From positions 32,979 to 96,978 of the IMG/VR virus record IMGVR_UViG_2788500332_000006: 64,000 nucleotides of DNA; one strand, 5' to 3'. This DNA is from a virus. Lineage: Duplodnaviria > Caudoviricetes. The notes under the pieces are model-generated. The model was not told the origin of the DNA and ran no database searches. It was given only the letters and a program-made list of their open reading frames with translations. Shown here piece after piece: positions 1-40,259 of the stretch. Position numbers and translations under genes: made by a program. How positions within the stretch are numbered: position 1 is the first letter of the stretch; every line of letters begins with the position of its first letter.

Positions 1-212
1 AGTCGCTGGATGAGCTGCTTGCCGAGGGCCGCGCCGGTCGTGAGGCTGCCGAAAAATTCGCCCCTGGCTACACGGAGGTCATTTCCGTCCGCGCCTACGA
101 CAAGGCTGCCTTTCACGCCGATCCGTTCGGCTGCCCGGCTCTTTTCGAGGCCGCGACCCTGTGACCTTGGGGCTGGCTTCGGCCCGCTGCTGGTGCATCA
201 GAGGGAAACACC

Positions 213-7047: not shown

Positions 7048-8034
7048 ATGAACCTGCAGACCGCAGCGCAGGCGCTCAACGCCTTTCTCGACGCCGACAT
7101 CCCCGTCATGATGTGGGGCCCGCCCGGTGTCGGCAAGTCGTCCATCGGCAGGGACATCGTGGCCGAACGGAACTGGGGTCTGGTCGACTTCCGCGCCTCC
7201 ACCCGCGATCCGGTCGCCCTCATGGGCCTGCCCGACCTCACCGCCGACACCACCAAGTGGAAGGTTCCCGACGAGTTCCCGCAGCCCGACCGCGACGGTG
7301 CCGAAGGCATCCTGTTCCTCGACGAGATCAACGCCGCCGCGCCCTCGATGCAGGCCGCCATGTTCGGGCTGGTGCTCGATCGCCGCGTTGGCGATTACCA
7401 GCTCCCGCCGGGCTGGCGCGTCGTGGCCGCCGGCAACCGCCAGTCCGACCGTGCCGCCGCGCAGCGCATGCCGTCGGCGCTCGCAAACCGGTTCGCGCAC
7501 ATCGATGTCGACCCGGATGTCGACACTACCGTTCACCACTTCAACAAGATCGGAGTCGACCCGATCGTCGTCGCCTTCCTGCGCTGGCGGCCGGCCCTGT
7601 TGCTCGACATGAAGAATGATCAGCTCCGCGCGTTCCCGACGCCGCGGGCGTGGGAGCAGGTCGGCAAGGTCGTCCAGCAGCCGTCTCCGCTGCGGCTGGC
7701 TCTCATTGCCGGCGTCGTCGGCGACGGCGCCGCCGCCGAGCTCGAGGGCTTCATCCGCGTCTACCAAGGACTGCCGTCGCTCGATCTGGTGCTGAGCAAT
7801 CCGAGCGGCGCCAAGGTGCCCGAGGACTCGTCGGCGCGCTTCGCCATAAGCTCGGGCCTCGCCCGCAAGGTGACCGACAAGACCATCGGCAACGCCATGA
7901 TCTACATGCAGCGCCTGCCCCGAGAGTTCGAGATCCTGTTCATGACGGACGCCGTTCGGCGCGACAGCAAGCTCTCGCACACGCAGGCCTTCGTCGACTG
8001 GACGGTTCGGAATCAGGACGTGGTGTTCGGATGA
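7048..8034 (+). CDS. MoxR-type AAA+ ATPase
   Basis: Walker A GPPGVGKS, Walker B LFLDE, sensor VAAGN, ALANRF Arg finger, PTPRAW. Confidence 0.92.
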   Translation: MNLQTAAQALNAFLDADIPVMMWGPPGVGKSSIGRDIVAERNWGLVDFRASTRDPVALMGLPDLTADTTKWKVPDEFPQPDRDGAEGILFLDEINAAAPSMQAAMFGLVLDRRVGDYQLPPGWRVVAAGNRQSDRAAAQRMPSALANRFAHIDVDPDVDTTVHHFNKIGVDPIVVAFLRWRPALLLDMKNDQLRAFPTPRAWEQVGKVVQQPSPLRLALIAGVVGDGAAAELEGFIRVYQGLPSLDLVLSNPSGAKVPEDSSARFAISSGLARKVTDKTIGNAMIYMQRLPREFEILFMTDAVRRDSKLSHTQAFVDWTVRNQDVVFG

Positions 8035-23941: not shown

Positions 23942-24202
23942 TTACGAGGCGGTCTCAAGACACGCCTTCGCCAGCCATTCCAGAGAAATGCCTCGAACTC
24001 GCTTCTTGCGCGATGCCGCAACTACAGCAGGCCAATGCTCCATCGGGATACACCCGCGCTCCCGCCATTTCCTGGCGGTTTGGTATTTGACGCCAACCGC
24101 TCGGGCGAATTCGGCCACAGCTCCCCACAAGCCGTCAGGCCCCCAAGCCCACCTGTCGATGAGTTCGGGAATGGAGGTAGGACATGATTGCTTCGCGCTC
24201 AT
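23942..24202 (-). CDS. Cro-like antirepressor-side regulator
   Basis: AEFARAVGVKYQTARKWRERGCIPMEHWPAVV; divergent from cI. Confidence 0.8.
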   Translation of the reverse strand: MSAKQSCPTSIPELIDRWAWGPDGLWGAVAEFARAVGVKYQTARKWRERGCIPMEHWPAVVAASRKKRVRGISLEWLAKACLETAS

Positions 24203-24209
24203 GCGCCAG

Positions 24210-24238
24210 TTTGTACACTGCGTATAAATCCGCCGCAA
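24210..24238 (-). promoter_or_regulatory. PR-like promoter TTGCGG-17-TACAAA with operator O1 (GTACACTGCGTAT, 24213-24225)
   Basis: Same layout as the promoter at 25324; operator covers spacer and -10. Confidence 0.7.
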
Positions 24239-24247
24239 CCCCTCTTC

Positions 24248-24279
24248 CTACGCCGCGTACTAAATATTTGATCCATAAT
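24248..24279 (+). promoter_or_regulatory. Operator O2 (CTACGCCGCGTAC, 24248-24260) and cI -10 CATAAT (24274-24279)
   Basis: Operator consensus match; -10 ends 6 nt before the cI ATG and there is no RBS. Confidence 0.6.
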
Positions 24280-24285
24280 CGGCGT

Positions 24286-24921
24286 ATGAAAAATGTTATC
24301 GACGAGAGAACCCGTCTCGAGCGGGCGCGCCGCCTCAAGGAGGCGCGGATCAAGGCCTATGGCGATAATCTCAGCGAGATGTACCGGCAGGTCCGATTGC
24401 CGGTAACCCAGAGCGCTTATACCCATCACGAGAGCGGTCGGCGCGCCTATGACTACGACCTGGCGCTCGCTTACGCGGATCTCTTTGGAGTGACCGCCGA
24501 GCACCTTTACAACGGGCCTGACGCAACGAACGGACATGGGATTCAGATCCCCGTCGTATCCATGGTCACCGCCGGCATGCTGCAATTCCGCGAAGGCGTC
24601 GAAAAGAAGGACGTCATCCGGACCATAACCCTCAGTGGACTCCCCGACGGGGAATGGATCGGGCTGATCGTCGACGGCGATTCCATGAATCGGATCGCGC
24701 CGCCTAACTCCATCATCGCGGTGAACAGACGCGACAAGACGCTGCTGAATGACAAATTCTACGTCTTCGTCAATAGCTTAAGCGAATCCACGTTCAAAAA
24801 GTTTAGAAAAAGCCCGCCCCGGATGACGCCCTACTCGACGAATCCTGACCATATGTCGATTCCTATGTCGGACGATATGCAGGTCTTCGGGCGAGTCAAA
24901 GTCGTCATCACAGAACTCTAG
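24286..24921 (+). CDS. CI-like repressor (HTH + S24 peptidase)
   Basis: RLKEARIKA..SAYTHHESGRR; VTAG cleavage site; GDSM Ser; TFKK Lys. Confidence 0.9.
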   Translation: MKNVIDERTRLERARRLKEARIKAYGDNLSEMYRQVRLPVTQSAYTHHESGRRAYDYDLALAYADLFGVTAEHLYNGPDATNGHGIQIPVVSMVTAGMLQFREGVEKKDVIRTITLSGLPDGEWIGLIVDGDSMNRIAPPNSIIAVNRRDKTLLNDKFYVFVNSLSESTFKKFRKSPPRMTPYSTNPDHMSIPMSDDMQVFGRVKVVITEL

Positions 24922-25271
24922 GATTCAGAGAGGGAATCCTTCCTCATGCTCGGTGGTGAGCCCTGAGCCCGGACATAGGAGGACTAAGCCCTGTGCCCGA
25001 GAGCATCCAGGGTTAGCCCCTATGCCGGATGACATGCTCGGCGGAGCCGCCCGTCACCCATCCCCGACGTTCGACACCAGCGACGTCAGTTGTCCGCACT
25101 TTTTCGTCGCCTCTGGCAAGGCCACGGCAGGAACCCCTTCGGACTTTCGGAGTGGGGCTTCTATCTTCCTGCGCCCGATGGTATAGAAAAGACCTCTGCA
25201 AAGAGGTGAGAGCGCCACCGTCTCTACCGACCGCTCTCTTCCAAAGCCCCAGGTTCCCGCCTGGGGCTTTT
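24920..25271 (+). ncRNA. Putative structured non-coding RNA
   Basis: Many hand-checked helices, G-U wobbles and a GCAA tetraloop mostly favouring the + strand; no credible ORF. Confidence 0.55.
25243..25271. terminator. Bidirectional rho-independent terminator
   Basis: AAAGCCCCAGG-TTCCCG-CCTGGGGCTTTT. Confidence 0.85.
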
Positions 25272-25302
25272 CGCTTCTACGCCCTCCGTCGATCGCCCGT
25301 CA

Positions 25303-25352
25303 ATACGCAGTGTACGAATCCGCTTGACGCTGATTTGTACACAGCGTACTAA
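25303..25352 (+). promoter_or_regulatory. PL-like promoter TTGACG-17-TACTAA with operators O3 (25303-25315) and O4 (25337-25349)
   Basis: O3 ATACGCAGTGTAC is the exact reverse complement of O1; O4 GTACACAGCGTAC. Confidence 0.8.
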
Positions 25353-25371
25353 TCGCGTCACGGAGGCACCG

Positions 25372-25539
25372 ATGACCGCTTCGACCCGCACCACCAAGCA
25401 GGAAGCGACATCGCAGAACCAAACCCGCGAAGCGCTCGACGCTTGGCGGCGAGGTGACCGCCTCTCTGACGAACAGCAGGACGCCGTGACGTGGGCCTTG
25501 TGCTCATGTCTTGCCCGCGCCCTCGGCTATCAGACCTGA
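25372..25539 (+). CDS. Small hypothetical protein
   Basis: GGAGG RBS; first gene after PL. Confidence 0.6.
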   Translation: MTASTRTTKQEATSQNQTREALDAWRRGDRLSDEQQDAVTWALCSCLARALGYQT

Positions 25540-25572
25540 ACCAACCAGAGGGCGGCCTTTGGCCGTGCAGCC

Positions 25573-26880
25573 ATGCACATCGTCCGGCTCAATGCCGAGA
25601 ACATCAAACGTTTGTCCGCAGTGGAGATCGCCCCCAACGGCAATCTCGTCGAGATCACCGGCAAGAACGGCCAAGGCAAGACCTCCGTGCTCGACGCCAT
25701 TTATTGGGCGCTGGCCGGCACCAAGCCGATCCAGGGCAAGCCCGTGCGCGACGGCGCCGACACCGGCTCAGTGACGCTCGACCTTGGCGAATACGTCGTG
25801 ACCCGCAAATTCCGGGTTCGCGACGACGGCGAGTACACGACGTCGCTCACCGTCGCCAACAAGGACGGCGCCAAGTACAGCGACCCGCAGAAGCTGCTCA
25901 ACGCCCTGGTTGGCGATCTCACTTTCGACCCCCTGGACTTCTCGCGGATGAAGCCGCTCGACCAGGTCATCGCGTTGCGCGCTCTGGTGCCCGACTACGA
26001 TTTCGTGGAAGCCGATCGCCTCAGCTTGAAGGACTTCAATGCCCGAACGGAAGTTAACCGCGATATCCGCGACCTTCAGGCCCGCGTCGAAGCGATCATC
26101 GTTCCGGACGGCACCCCCGACGAGCGCGTCGACCTCGCGGCGCTGATGGAGGAGCTGCAGAAGGATCTCGAGGCCAACGAGGCGGCCCGCCGCCATGCCG
26201 AGAAGGTCAATTCACACACGGCGGCCATCGCCACTCTCGAGGAAGAGATCCAGCGCGGACGATCCGATATCGCCCGCTTGCAGGCGGAAATCGCCAACAT
26301 CGAGAAAAATATCGCCGCACGGGAGCTCGGCATCGAGGAACACCGCGATCTTATCGACGACCTCGGCTTGGCTCCGGCTCAGATCGACACCGCCGACGTG
26401 CGCCAGAGGATCGCCGAATCCGAGACGATCAATCGGAACGTCGAACTGAAGAAGCAGCGGCGGAAGCTGAACGCCGAGCTTCGCGACAAGACCGAGGAAA
26501 GCGCCAACCTGACCGGCAGCATCGCCGTCCGCAAGGCCGCGGCCGCCAAAGCGGTGCGCGACGCGGATCTCCCGGTGGAGGGGCTGGAGCTCACCGAGGA
26601 TGGCGTTCTGCTCAACGGCGTGCCGTTCGATCAGGCCAGCGATGCCGAACAGCTCCGCGTCTCGATCGCCGTCGCCGGCGCCATGAACCCGCGCCTTCGC
26701 GTCATCCGCGTGCGCGACGGCTCGCTTCTGGACGACGACTCCATGGCCGCCCTCGCCAGCTATGCCGAGGCCAACGGGCTCCAGGTGTGGGTCGAGACGG
26801 TCCAGTCCGGCCGGGAGGCCGCCATCGTCATCGAAGACGGGCACGTCGCCAAGCGAGAGGAGGCAGGCTCAGATGCTTGA
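25573..26880 (+). CDS. SMC/RecF-like ABC-type ATPase with coiled coil
   Basis: LNAENIKRL, ITGKNGQGKTSVLDAI, long coiled coil, ASDAEQ signature-like, RDGSLLD. Confidence 0.85.
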   Translation: MHIVRLNAENIKRLSAVEIAPNGNLVEITGKNGQGKTSVLDAIYWALAGTKPIQGKPVRDGADTGSVTLDLGEYVVTRKFRVRDDGEYTTSLTVANKDGAKYSDPQKLLNALVGDLTFDPLDFSRMKPLDQVIALRALVPDYDFVEADRLSLKDFNARTEVNRDIRDLQARVEAIIVPDGTPDERVDLAALMEELQKDLEANEAARRHAEKVNSHTAAIATLEEEIQRGRSDIARLQAEIANIEKNIAARELGIEEHRDLIDDLGLAPAQIDTADVRQRIAESETINRNVELKKQRRKLNAELRDKTEESANLTGSIAVRKAAAAKAVRDADLPVEGLELTEDGVLLNGVPFDQASDAEQLRVSIAVAGAMNPRLRVIRVRDGSLLDDDSMAALASYAEANGLQVWVETVQSGREAAIVIEDGHVAKREEAGSDA

Positions 26881-32962: not shown

Positions 32963-33219
32963 TGCCCTATCCTCCCCTCATCCAGCGGTCGAACCAGGCG
33001 CGCTCCGCCGGCCGCCGCGACGACATTCCACCCCGGCACGACCGGATTATGCGCCGGATCGACGAGCTCAACGTCACCTGCGAGTCCGTCGTGTCCCGGG
33101 CCGGCTACTCGTTCACGACGCTCGACGATATCCGCGCCGGCCGGGTCAAGCGTGACTGCATCCTGACCGACTTCGAGATCGCACTCGATCTCCCGAAGTG
33201 GGAGGGCCGGCACACATGA
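32962..33219 (+). CDS. Hypothetical protein (possible HTH)
   Basis: TGATG coupling. Confidence 0.55.
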   Translation: MPYPPLIQRSNQARSAGRRDDIPPRHDRIMRRIDELNVTCESVVSRAGYSFTTLDDIRAGRVKRDCILTDFEIALDLPKWEGRHT

Positions 33220-40183: not shown

Positions 40184-40259
40184 TGGTGGGCCCGCCTGGA
40201 CTCGAACCAGGAACCAGACCGTTATGAGCGGCCGGCTCTAACCATTGAGCTACAGGCCC
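40184..40259 (-). tRNA. tRNA-Ile2 (CAU, lysidine-modified)
   Basis: 76-nt cloverleaf GGGCCTGTAGCTCAATGGTTAGAGCCGGCCGCTCATAACGGTCTGGTTCCTGGTTCGAGTCCAGGCGGGCCCACCA; G1-C72 pair (not fMet); C4-G69 and C5-G68 as in Ile2. Confidence 0.9.

Follow-up and report, generated by a model that had tools for sequence, protein, structure and literature searches.

A conserved, pseudoknotted RNA in the immunity region of Hyphomicrobiales phages, probably read against the repressor operon

The window analysed here is a stretch of 64,000 nucleotides of tailed-phage DNA (Caudoviricetes; IMG/VR record IMGVR_UViG_2788500332_000006, positions 32,979 to 96,978). Its immunity region has the order cI, accessory slot, terminator, OL/PL and early-left recombination genes, which is the order found in lambda, and the element we describe lies between cI and OL/PL, in the slot where lambda carries rexAB, as had been predicted. 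That original prediction, made from the letters of this DNA, described a dense structured non-coding stretch at 24920-25271. The stretch itself, its non-coding character and its position after an S24/cI-like gene have held up; several of the stems drawn within it have not. The main features of the locus are as follows.

24184..24921, plus strand: cI-like repressor gene (Peptidase_S24, Pfam E 2.6e-08), convergent with the RNA gene
24920..24939, no strand assigned: hairpin overlapping the cI stop codon, with two GANTC sites inside
24944-25271, most likely minus strand: conserved RNA gene, ~330 nt
24944..24961, minus strand: direct repeat DR1, where clear conservation of the RNA ends; the tail beyond it is A/G-rich and poorly conserved
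25246..25271, no strand assigned: symmetrical hairpin flanked by an A-tract and, opposite, a T-tract, with compensatory changes in its stem

The original prediction had proposed homologues and covariation as a check on the region, and both are there. We found 49 full-length homologues of the RNA in prophages and viral contigs, 43 of them at <97% identity. Their named hosts are Hyphomicrobiales, and the RNA-carrying prophages include those of Nitratireductor indicus C115, Aquamicrobium defluvii DSM 11603, Ensifer sp. MPMI2T and Ancylobacter sp. 3268. Every homologue is placed between the end of the cI (immunity) operon and the early-left operator/promoter, and the RNA gene is kept at this spot in phages that differ in repressor and operator. 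In 17 of 34 loci a homologue of the S24-type repressor has the same relative orientation; in all 17 loci that have the S24 type, the repressor is opposite to the RNA strand. In several loci the repressor is separated from the RNA by one to three small genes, which means that the antisense overlap concerns the tail of the operon and not cI itself. No partner gene is conserved within ±6 kb of the RNA, where the repressor cluster alone recurs. Downstream on the RNA strand there is likewise no conserved gene, since no ORF is consistent among loci and the candidates have no Pfam matches. Pattern matches in GTDB contigs (L029, L030, L033) and in IMG/VR (L003, L004, L007-L009) were set aside as chance. 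A BLAST search of the element against isolated phages and plasmids returned nothing beyond 35-nt matches to the terminator hairpin; these are in Brevundimonas jumbo phages.

Two alternatives that had been named beforehand, a repeat element and a conserved small ORF, were not borne out. A repeat or mobile element was rejected because the RNA element is single copy in its own 97-kb record and, among 401 sampled genomes of the host order, occurs only in the query's own. Small ORFs (54-107 codons) do occur on both strands of the element; they were rejected because on either strand they are no longer than in shuffled sequences and have no Pfam match. Open frames are at the shuffled expectation and there is no 3-nt periodicity; indel lengths modulo 3 leave remainder 1 in 424 cases, 2 in 125 and 0 in 74.

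As judged by profile searches, the RNA belongs to a family outside Rfam and without a match to described families, in agreement with the earlier failure to assign it to one. Rfam 15 (4227 models) was searched with cmscan at gathering scores and at E <=10. Over the window, the gathering-score search gave just a tRNA, elsewhere in the window, and nothing in 12 homologues rose above a gathering threshold. ARAGORN reported no tRNA or tmRNA in 24000-26000, and no tmRNA model matched. The best match in the region at E <=10 was sar, rejected at 19.7 bits against a gathering score of 43 and covering the hairpin part only. A weak match to the Pseudomonas rnk leader, rnk_pseudo (RF01772), recurred on the cI-sense strand in 6 of the 12 homologues (23-31 bits against a gathering score of 55), with a 12-nt stretch and the terminator in common. 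The rnk_pseudo stem joins segments that covariation gives to P7 and to the P10 loop and is not a covarying helix, and we treat the match as chance plus terminator. Models of FuFi-1, GOLLD, ROOL, raiA and OLE were not listed by cmscan even at E <=10.

Using the 43 non-redundant homologues (<97% identity), with shuffles and slid partners as controls, we obtained a conserved fold of twelve helices: eight nested and four long-range, the latter comprising three pseudoknots and one kissing-loop pair. Its elements, in minus-strand order and together with the second direct repeat, are these.

25208-14 with 25232-38, minus strand: helix P10, 7/7 pairs doubly changed; its loop holds the pseudoknot strand 25215-20
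25176-81 with 25215-20, minus strand: pseudoknot pk3, found by mutual information; cells paired 99.6% on the minus strand and 89.1% on the plus strand
25192..25207, minus strand: hairpin P9, 4/4 pairs doubly changed
25159-64 with 25183-88, minus strand: pseudoknot pk2, containing the top mutual-information pair (TA 19, CG 11, AT 10)
25127-33 with 25166-72, minus strand: helix P6, enclosing P7, 5/6 pairs doubly changed
25134-57, minus strand: hairpin P7, invariant
25092-95 with P7 loop 25141-44, minus strand: pseudoknot pk1, 3/4 pairs covary; 100% of cells paired on the minus strand
25105..25126, minus strand: hairpin P5, whose loop 25113-16 kisses the P3 loop 25077-80
25066..25087, minus strand: hairpin P3, 7/8 pairs doubly changed
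25030-32 with 25054-56, minus strand: short helix P2, closing a conserved 21-nt loop that holds DR2
25033-49, minus strand: direct repeat DR2, inside the P2 loop
24969..25028, minus strand: long bulged rod P1, its lower two thirds nearly invariant

Double (compensatory) changes occur in 44 of the 78 pairs. Doubly changed cells number 424-460 against 121-129 in shuffles of the 43 homologues (460 against 129±10 for the minus-strand alignment), and the covariation score is 0.33-0.41, reaching 0.411 on the minus strand, compared with at most 0.075 when partners are slid. P7 is invariant and hence uninformative on covariation. The long-range pairs surfaced blind, by mutual information, and in the 12 sequences with a variant P3 loop that loop is complementary on average to 5.5 nt of its own P5 loop versus 3.2 nt of consensus P5 loops. 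On this comparative proof the RNA structure is real, far beyond chance.

Of the stems drawn originally, the long bulged rod (24974-25024), the stem 25127-33 with 25166-72, the stem 25208-14 with 25232-38 and the terminal hairpin 25246-71 are all borne out by covariation. The stem of the hairpin at 25192-25207 also covaries, but its GNRA loop is not conserved. The two closing helices proposed for the rod found no support, the real closing helix being 25030-32 with 25054-56. A supposed pairing of 25103-08 with 25176-81 gives way to pk3, in which the latter segment pairs with 25215-20, and a TGGC/GCCA stem is replaced by a 4-bp stem whose loop forms a kissing contact with that of the hairpin next to it.

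The 9-mer noticed to occur twice is indeed a direct repeat throughout the family, and its two copies change together, as identical letters. Mutual information over the family alignment gave no covarying partner for the repeats, and no alternative pairing in the family is backed by covariation. We rejected a model in which the repeats replace pk1 or pk3 strands because, by eye, repeat variants do not track partner variants. A pair proposed by RNAalifold (25047-50 with 25178-81) was also rejected, as it is invariant and clashes with the covarying pk3. When the repeats alone were compared, no complement of their core recurred within the loci.

Several lines of comparative evidence bear on which strand carries the RNA. 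When the helices are read on the cI strand, A·C cells total 183, spread over 35 pairs, and G·U cells 71, over 15 pairs; since a single invariant pair supplies 43 of these 71, the count without that pair is 183 against 28. The A·C mismatches of the plus strand become G·U pairs on the minus strand. The plus-strand mismatches fall mid-way in short pseudoknots, with two of them adjacent in a 6-bp helix in about one third of the sequences, and one pair of rod P1 that is C·A on the plus strand in 26 of 43 sequences is U·G on the minus strand. This wobble-pair asymmetry points to selection on a single strand. Measures of the whole structure agree: 92.8% of cells are paired on the minus strand and 89.4% on the plus strand; further pair types number 128 on the minus strand, a value reached by none of 500 shuffles, versus 100 on the plus strand, reached by 226 of 500; and the RNAalifold energy is -158.5 on the minus strand and -129.7 on the plus strand. 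In addition, 7 of the 43 loci have a cI-sense terminator ahead of the RNA gene and no visible plus-strand promoter after it, so a cI read-through RNA could not form there.

There are counter-signals. The invariant U·G of P7 on the plus strand turns into C·A on the minus strand, and the window sequence taken alone has a better fold z-score on the plus strand (-3.07) than on the minus strand (-2.16). On the plus strand, moreover, a textbook terminator would close the element, as is usual for ncRNA genes that stand alone, while an RNA-sense intrinsic terminator is found within 200 nt in only 2 of the 43 loci. Nevertheless, the G·U/A·C asymmetry, the better pairing, covariation and energy on the minus strand, a positionally conserved candidate promoter on that strand and the cI-sense terminators together argue for an independent gene on the opposite strand. 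We consider it very probable that the RNA is read from the minus strand of the window, convergent with cI and from a predicted sigma-70-type promoter of its own; its original assignment to the cI transcript is probably wrong.

The predicted promoters and operators around the RNA 5' end are listed below.

25298..25303, minus strand: -35 hexamer TTGACG of the predicted RNA promoter, P_RNA, as read from the sequence
25274..25279, minus strand: -10 hexamer TAGAAG of P_RNA, with a predicted start at ~25267-25271
25304..25315, no strand assigned: putative repressor operator copy between two back-to-back -35 hexamers, its centre at about -42 from the predicted RNA start
25324..25352, plus strand: predicted early-left promoter PL (TTGACG, 17 nt, TACTAA), whose spacer and -10 are covered by a putative operator copy at 25337-48

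At the -35 position of P_RNA, 27 of 38 loci have a TTG-type hexamer at the same aligned position, and 29 of 38 have a spacer of 17 nt; both counts are flattered by a scan that could choose the best among a few neighbouring positions. The promoter keeps a fixed position beside the terminal hairpin across loci. Its -10 overlaps the complement of the terminator T-tract, so its conservation may be partly a by-product. The shared hairpin (25246..25271) most likely terminates the immunity operon on the plus strand and forms the 5' end of the RNA on the minus strand. Exact copies of one 12-mer, the putative repressor operator, lie at 24213, 25304 and 25337 and flank the module. In other loci, too, -35 hexamers stand back-to-back at a distance of 20-30 bp and enclose immunity-specific repeats; read by eye, the promoter layout is that of the window and the operators are different. 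The window operator (25304-15) adjoins the P_RNA -35 (25298-303) and does not cover it. Among loci the gap between operator and -35 ranges from 0 to ~8 nt, and activation by the repressor therefore cannot be taken for granted. The P_RNA promoter also contains GANTC sites.

Overall, the best explanation of these data, and probably the right one, is a ~330-nt non-coding RNA gene on the minus strand, its promoter back-to-back with PL; our best guess is that the RNA belongs to a repressor-coupled lysis-lysogeny module and is antisense to the tail of the immunity transcript. The RNA would start at the sigma-70-type promoter with its -35 at 25298-303 and -10 at 25274-279, standing back-to-back with PL and with one operator between the -35 hexamers, as in the lambda PRM/PR geometry of two back-to-back promoters sharing a repressor operator. 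Lambda OR2 is centred ~42 nt from the PRM start, matching the spacing between the window operator and the predicted RNA start. Since P_RNA lies next to the operator and is not covered by it, expression in lysogens is plausible; the RNA would be made there under the influence of the repressor and form part of the lysis-lysogeny control module. At most loci the immunity transcript would cross the entire RNA gene in antisense, and the RNA-sense transcript would meet no intrinsic terminator ahead of the convergent gene, so that the transcripts could interfere through collision or duplex formation. The conserved fold would make the RNA stable and probably serves to bind a host or phage factor that is itself conserved, and processing beside the very stable rod probably defines the mature 3' end. 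Taken together, these steps (lysogen expression under repressor influence, module membership, transcript interference, a fold for stability and for binding a factor, and 3' processing) make up a tentative proposal, somewhat less likely than not. A more ambitious version, rather unlikely in our estimation, makes the RNA a compact, repressor-coupled effector or sensor arm of immunity (riboswitch-, ribozyme- or RNP-like), a cassette common to heteroimmune temperate phages that would, on a cellular signal, decide what becomes of the immunity transcript or whether lysogeny is left. The GANTC sites of the promoter make the cell-cycle methylation state a candidate for that signal. Searches yielded no RNA target or partner.

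Known phage RNAs share parts of this design. In lambda the slot holds the rexAB protein genes on the cI strand, whereas here it would hold an RNA gene running back towards cI, and at the OL of lambda no promoter is known to fire in the direction opposite to PL. Lambda OOP (against cII) and P22 sar (against ant) are convergent with a regulatory gene, overlap the end of the other transcript and belong to the lysis-lysogeny circuitry, as we propose for the window RNA. They are, however, simple hairpin RNAs of 70-80 nt with terminators, whereas the window RNA has ~330 nt and four tertiary pairings, and what is conserved of it is independent of the gene that it faces. P4 CI RNA and P1/P7 c4 RNA, which are phage-encoded, made in the lysogen and active in immunity, would be comparable. 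Those RNAs are immunity-specific and act through short complements in the same operon; the window RNA has no nearby complement of its variable repeat motifs and is conserved across heteroimmune phages. In kind and context it also resembles FuFi-1 (RF02986), GOLLD and ROOL, which are large, conserved orphan bacterial RNAs with complex folds, the latter two often in prophages (Weinberg et al. 2017, PMC5737381). There is no match to them in sequence or structure. FuFi-1 occurs in Fusobacteria and Firmicutes, as opposed to Hyphomicrobiales, and ends in a terminator, whereas the window RNA in its likely sense begins with a hairpin and has no terminator.

A possible though improbable alternative is a trans-acting 'moron' RNA apart from the switch, that is, a decoy, sponge or scaffold made in lysogens against other phages, or one that alters host physiology, as rexAB do in lambda. 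The slot is one used for accessory and exclusion genes, and the module stays constant across heteroimmune phages while repressors and operators differ, which implies that the RNA does not read an immunity-specific sequence. The many conserved nucleotides outside the assigned helices are what a binding surface would be expected to show, and in rod P1 an invariant CCUCC-type stretch pairs with a G-rich strand. Against such a cargo gene stand the lack of a conserved partner protein gene nearby, repeat motifs without complementarity to nearby transcripts, and the fixed position relative to OL/PL and the missing terminator, which look more like the wiring of a switch.

It is quite unlikely that the element is instead the 3' untranslated tail of the cI transcript, ending at the intrinsic terminator and perhaps freed in lysogens as a 3'UTR-derived RNA. 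The cI stop codon is only ~25 nt ahead of the conserved part, with no plus-strand promoter between them in the window; a canonical terminator with a long T-tract follows; and orphan RNAs of the FuFi-1 kind end in terminators (PMC5737381). The window z-score favours this strand and the structure is still 89.4% paired on it. The 183 to 28 imbalance of A·C over G·U, the whole-structure measures (all better on the minus strand), the conserved candidate promoter on the minus strand and the seven loci with an earlier plus-strand terminator weigh against it.

Still less probable is a riboswitch-like sensing leader, in which a ligand or signal would control how much minus-strand transcription continues, in antisense, through the immunity operon. 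By its complexity and its several pseudoknots the RNA falls in the class of large aptamers, RNA-sense transcription is not stopped ahead of the convergent gene, and Listeria and Enterococcus have antisense RNAs under riboswitch control. Within the RNA, a terminator-like hairpin (minus strand, 25207-25192) is followed by a U-rich run that is also a pk2 strand, so a switch would be possible. However, that run is not kept U-rich in the family, neither the fold nor the direct repeats offer a covarying alternative pairing, and the RNA strand has no conserved downstream gene. That the element is no RNA at all, being a small protein gene (ORFs of the lengths given above lie on both strands) or a DNA-level site (the two repeats co-vary as identical letters, like sites of one DNA-binding protein), is scarcely credible in the face of absent coding signal and Pfam matches, compensatory changes in 44 pairs, crossing pairs included, that neither coding nor duplex DNA sites explain, and a wobble asymmetry that signifies single-strand selection.

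Returning to the minus-strand RNA gene, large RNAs that combine several pseudoknots with many conserved nucleotides outside helices are rare, and those known have usually proved to be ribozymes, ligand sensors or the cores of RNA-protein machines. The present RNA lends itself unusually well to study: its place is fixed within the genetic switch that biology understands best, flanked by the repressor operon and the early-left promoter, with a putative repressor operator beside it. A part in the choice between lysis and lysogeny, if it has one, would give lambda-type immunity in Alphaproteobacteria an additional layer made of RNA and offer a handle on the function of FuFi-1, GOLLD, ROOL and similar orphan phage RNAs. 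If it proves no more than a stable antisense RNA, the RNA would still be a new family, and a caution on assigning strand from a terminator alone. The four strain-named carriers may be culturable, in which case ordinary genetics would suffice.

Finally, the AGGATTC/GAATCCT hairpin over the cI stop codon (24920-39), part of the structured region as first drawn, is absent from the other homologues; it is present in the window and in its closest relative, L002, where the stem carries compensatory changes.

The structured stretch at 24944-25271 belongs to a provirus record of 96,978 bp from IMG/VR, of which the window is a part, and the immunity genes on its left are as follows:

24184-24921, + strand, repressor-like gene with a Peptidase_S24 domain
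23942-24187, − strand, small Cro/YdaS-like gene (weak Pfam match, E 0.0024), divergent from the repressor gene and on its left

To the right of the stretch comes a promoter-like region followed by + strand early genes, the first large one encoding an AAA_23/SMC-type ATPase. Mismatch-free copies of the 12-mer TACGCWGTGTAC occur at 24213, 25304 and 25337, on both sides of the repressor unit as operators would be. Because the repressor, the 12-mer copies, the promoter region and the early genes lie in this arrangement, the gene order is of lambda type, with OR, cI, an accessory slot, a terminator, OL/PL and early-left genes in the same succession, and this order bears out the original prediction that the stretch fills the slot held by rexAB in lambda. 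Between the Cro/YdaS-like gene and the repressor gene (24200-24260), on the OR side of the switch, the operator 12-mer is present twice, once without mismatch and once with 2 mismatches. Within the same provirus record, a tRNA gene (63.6 bits, 40187-40259, − strand) may be a phage tRNA or the mark of an integration site.

In a close relative, locus L002, whose repressor is 94% identical to that of the window, the non-coding stretch is kept better than the end of the repressor gene and compensatory changes are already visible, while a second locus, L013, carries the same element next to a quite different 141-aa HTH repressor. Pattern scans on conserved segments in IMG/VR, GTDB genomes and metagenomes yielded further copies and, with chance matches and duplicates removed, we retained 49 full-length copies, 43 of them at less than 97% identity. 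The named host genomes (Tianweitania, Nitratireductor indicus, Aquamicrobium defluvii, Ancylobacter, Ensifer and Hoeflea) are all Hyphomicrobiales. Homologues in two short MAG contigs labeled Pseudobdellovibrionaceae (L026) and Nitrospira (L028), phyla distant from the remaining hosts, probably reflect mis-binned prophage contigs instead of true host range. The element is uncommon: its own record has one copy, only the query's own genome carried it among 401 sampled genomes of the host order, and it was absent from the isolated phages and plasmids searched. The region's sole similarity to isolated phages is a 35-nt match (91-92%) of the terminator hairpin (25246-25280) to sequence that lacks annotation in five Brevundimonas jumbo phages (ON529851-ON529860). 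One end of a metagenome contig (L078, about 1-60, reverse strand) resembles a Nextera transposase adapter in place of the RNA gene's hairpin and promoter, which makes this end of the public record an assembly artefact.

Taken alone, the sequence gives modest evidence for structure (z = −3.07 for +, −2.16 for −), and it is the comparative evidence that is decisive. RNAalifold predicted 61 pairs from 18 sequences, with compensatory changes in 25, and a mutual-information scan of 43 sequences revealed crossing pairs (pseudoknots pk1-pk3) that are invisible to a nested predictor. Together with a fourth long-range contact these are:

25159-64 with 25183-88, crossing pair pk2
25092-95 with loop 25141-44, crossing pair pk1
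25176-81 with loop 25215-20, crossing pair pk3
25077-80 with 25113-16, contact between two hairpin loops

In the loop-loop contact the first loop is changed in 12 sequences, and in 10 of the 12 the second loop carries the matching change. Over the whole structure, 44 pairs are changed on both sides in the tool's alignment, doubly changed cells number 424-460 versus 121-129 in shuffles, and the covariation score is four to six times as high as in any slid control. Among the stems originally proposed, the rod, 25127/25166, 25192-25207, 25208/25232 and the terminal hairpin are upheld by covariation and three others are not. As had been claimed, the region appears non-coding, with no coding signal on either strand of the element. 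Two direct repeats of about 16 nt (24944-24961 and 25033-25049) co-vary as identical letters family-wide, a joint change seen in no fewer than three or four distinct variant types, and the search in cis and nearby turned up no complementary partner for them. A third look-alike repeat (25089-25099) is one strand of pk1, and the direct repeats do not track changes in its partner.

A cmscan search found no Rfam family matching the element or 12 of its homologues at gathering scores, in keeping with the earlier failure to assign a known family. Identity with the rnk leader was rejected, the recurrent weak match being far below threshold, on the less likely strand and with the wrong segments paired. 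Nearest by kind are the orphan large RNAs FuFi-1, GOLLD and ROOL (PMC5737381). OOP and sar, both four times smaller and structurally simple, are nearest by convergent overlap, and the lambda PRM/PR pair is nearest by position and wiring, here moved to OL and driving an RNA. The RNA belongs to none of the FuFi-1, GOLLD, ROOL, OOP or sar families. It represents a real, new family of complex structured RNA that occupies a constant position within the immunity region of temperate phages of Hyphomicrobiales, and its function is directly testable.

The original prediction placed this RNA in the cI transcript; its structure stands, but the alignment strongly suggests that it is encoded on the − strand, opposite to the strand first assumed. 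Read on the cI (+) strand, the helices contain A·C or C·A in 183 cells (35 pairs) and G·U in only 71, of which 43 come from a single invariant pair. Both mismatches arise equally and only selection on the RNA strand tolerates G·U, so the A·C excess points to the opposite strand. The mismatches also fall where a + strand RNA could least afford them: in about a third of the sequences a 6-bp pseudoknot has two side by side, and 26 of 43 have one mid-rod. Turning to the reverse complement of the alignment raises the share of paired cells from 89.4% to 92.8% overall and from 89.1% to 99.6% in pk3, with the covariation score going from 0.332 to 0.411. Additional pair types number 100 on + (no better than shuffles) versus 128 on − (0 of 500 shuffles), and the RNAalifold energy is −158.5 in the minus sense versus −129.7 in the plus sense. 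The predicted right-flank promoter and the cI-sense terminators before the element lend independent support. Three points count against the minus strand: an invariant pair that fits + better, a −10 overlapping what is, on the other strand, the T-tract of the terminator, and RNA-sense terminators found at only 2 of 43 loci.

The predicted RNA-sense promoter pairs a TTG-type −35 with a TA-rich −10 across a spacer that is mostly 17 nt long. Both hexamers have a fixed position directly ahead of the A-run and hairpin, and neither the spacer nor the sequence outside the hexamers is conserved. Across loci the right side is constant, consisting of the hairpin, the RNA promoter, 20-30 bp with one operator repeat and then the −35 of PL, the predicted early-left promoter. 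This repeat is each phage's own, with a second copy over the PL core. Since the operators vary among phages and the RNA does not, the RNA is a cassette common to heteroimmune phages that does not read immunity-specific sequence. In the window the predicted operator adjoins the RNA promoter without covering it, centered at about −42, and from this placement we infer that the RNA is expressed in the lysogen. In lambda, repressor at OR2 stimulates PRM from about the −42 position. By analogy the repressor possibly stimulates the RNA promoter, which is not assured because operator spacing differs by up to about 8 nt in other loci.

Transcription would start at about 25267-25271 and run leftwards. 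Its opening 26 nt would fold into the hairpin that terminates the immunity operon on the other strand, followed on the − strand by helices P10 and P9, the P6/P7 domain, P5, P3, the P2 loop, the rod P1 and the last conserved repeat, to about 24944. Sequence beyond this point is A/G-rich, little conserved and overlaps the last codons of the convergent gene. The 3′ end is probably made by processing, since a very stable rod near the 3′ side naturally stops 3′ exonucleases. A simple scan called P9 and the following U-rich run (25207-25192, − strand) a terminator, about 70 nt into the predicted RNA; that run is also a pk2 strand, and its U-richness is not conserved in the family.

An S24-type repressor gene lies opposite the RNA strand in 17 of the 17 loci carrying that type, and elsewhere the repressor is of another HTH type or one to three small genes intervene. 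In 7 of 43 loci a cI-sense terminator precedes the element and would cut off read-through from the repressor operon. Such extra terminators separate the RNA gene from the last gene of the immunity operon in L014 (about 7290-7310), L025, L031 and L045, among others, and an identical hairpin sequence recurs in three unrelated loci. At about 35 of 43 loci no terminator in the cI sense was detected ahead of the RNA gene, and the immunity transcript should therefore traverse the whole gene and stop at the shared hairpin. The RNA-sense transcript has no terminator before the facing gene.

The fold is compact and conserved, its position is fixed and the overlap is convergent. We tentatively propose that the RNA is a module of the lysis-lysogeny switch, a possible role in which the immunity and RNA-sense transcripts would interfere, by polymerase collision or through an RNase III-accessible duplex of about 330 bp, so that the immunity operon would receive feedback from the RNA level. 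The fold goes far beyond the need of an antisense RNA and may bind a conserved factor or sense a signal. Neither a conserved partner gene within ±6 kb of the RNA nor, among complements of the direct repeats, a target of the RNA was found. An accessory RNA acting independently of the switch is a less probable reading, which we consider unlikely. A riboswitch-like leader is very improbable, as no alternative fold with covariation was found among the homologues.

GANTC, the CcrM methylation site of Alphaproteobacteria, occurs within the −35/−10 spacer of the predicted RNA promoter in 12 of 39 loci (L017, L018, L019, L025, L028, L031, L042, L043, L061, L063, L070 and L073), a count uncorrected for relatedness of the loci, against an expectation of about 0.04 sites per 25-nt window. 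Around the RNA gene, the window contains five GANTC sites in a span of 570 nt (24858, 24893, 24922, 24934 and 25316); one of them lies on the edge of the central operator and two fall in a hairpin over the cI stop codon. These sites hint at cell-cycle or methylation control.
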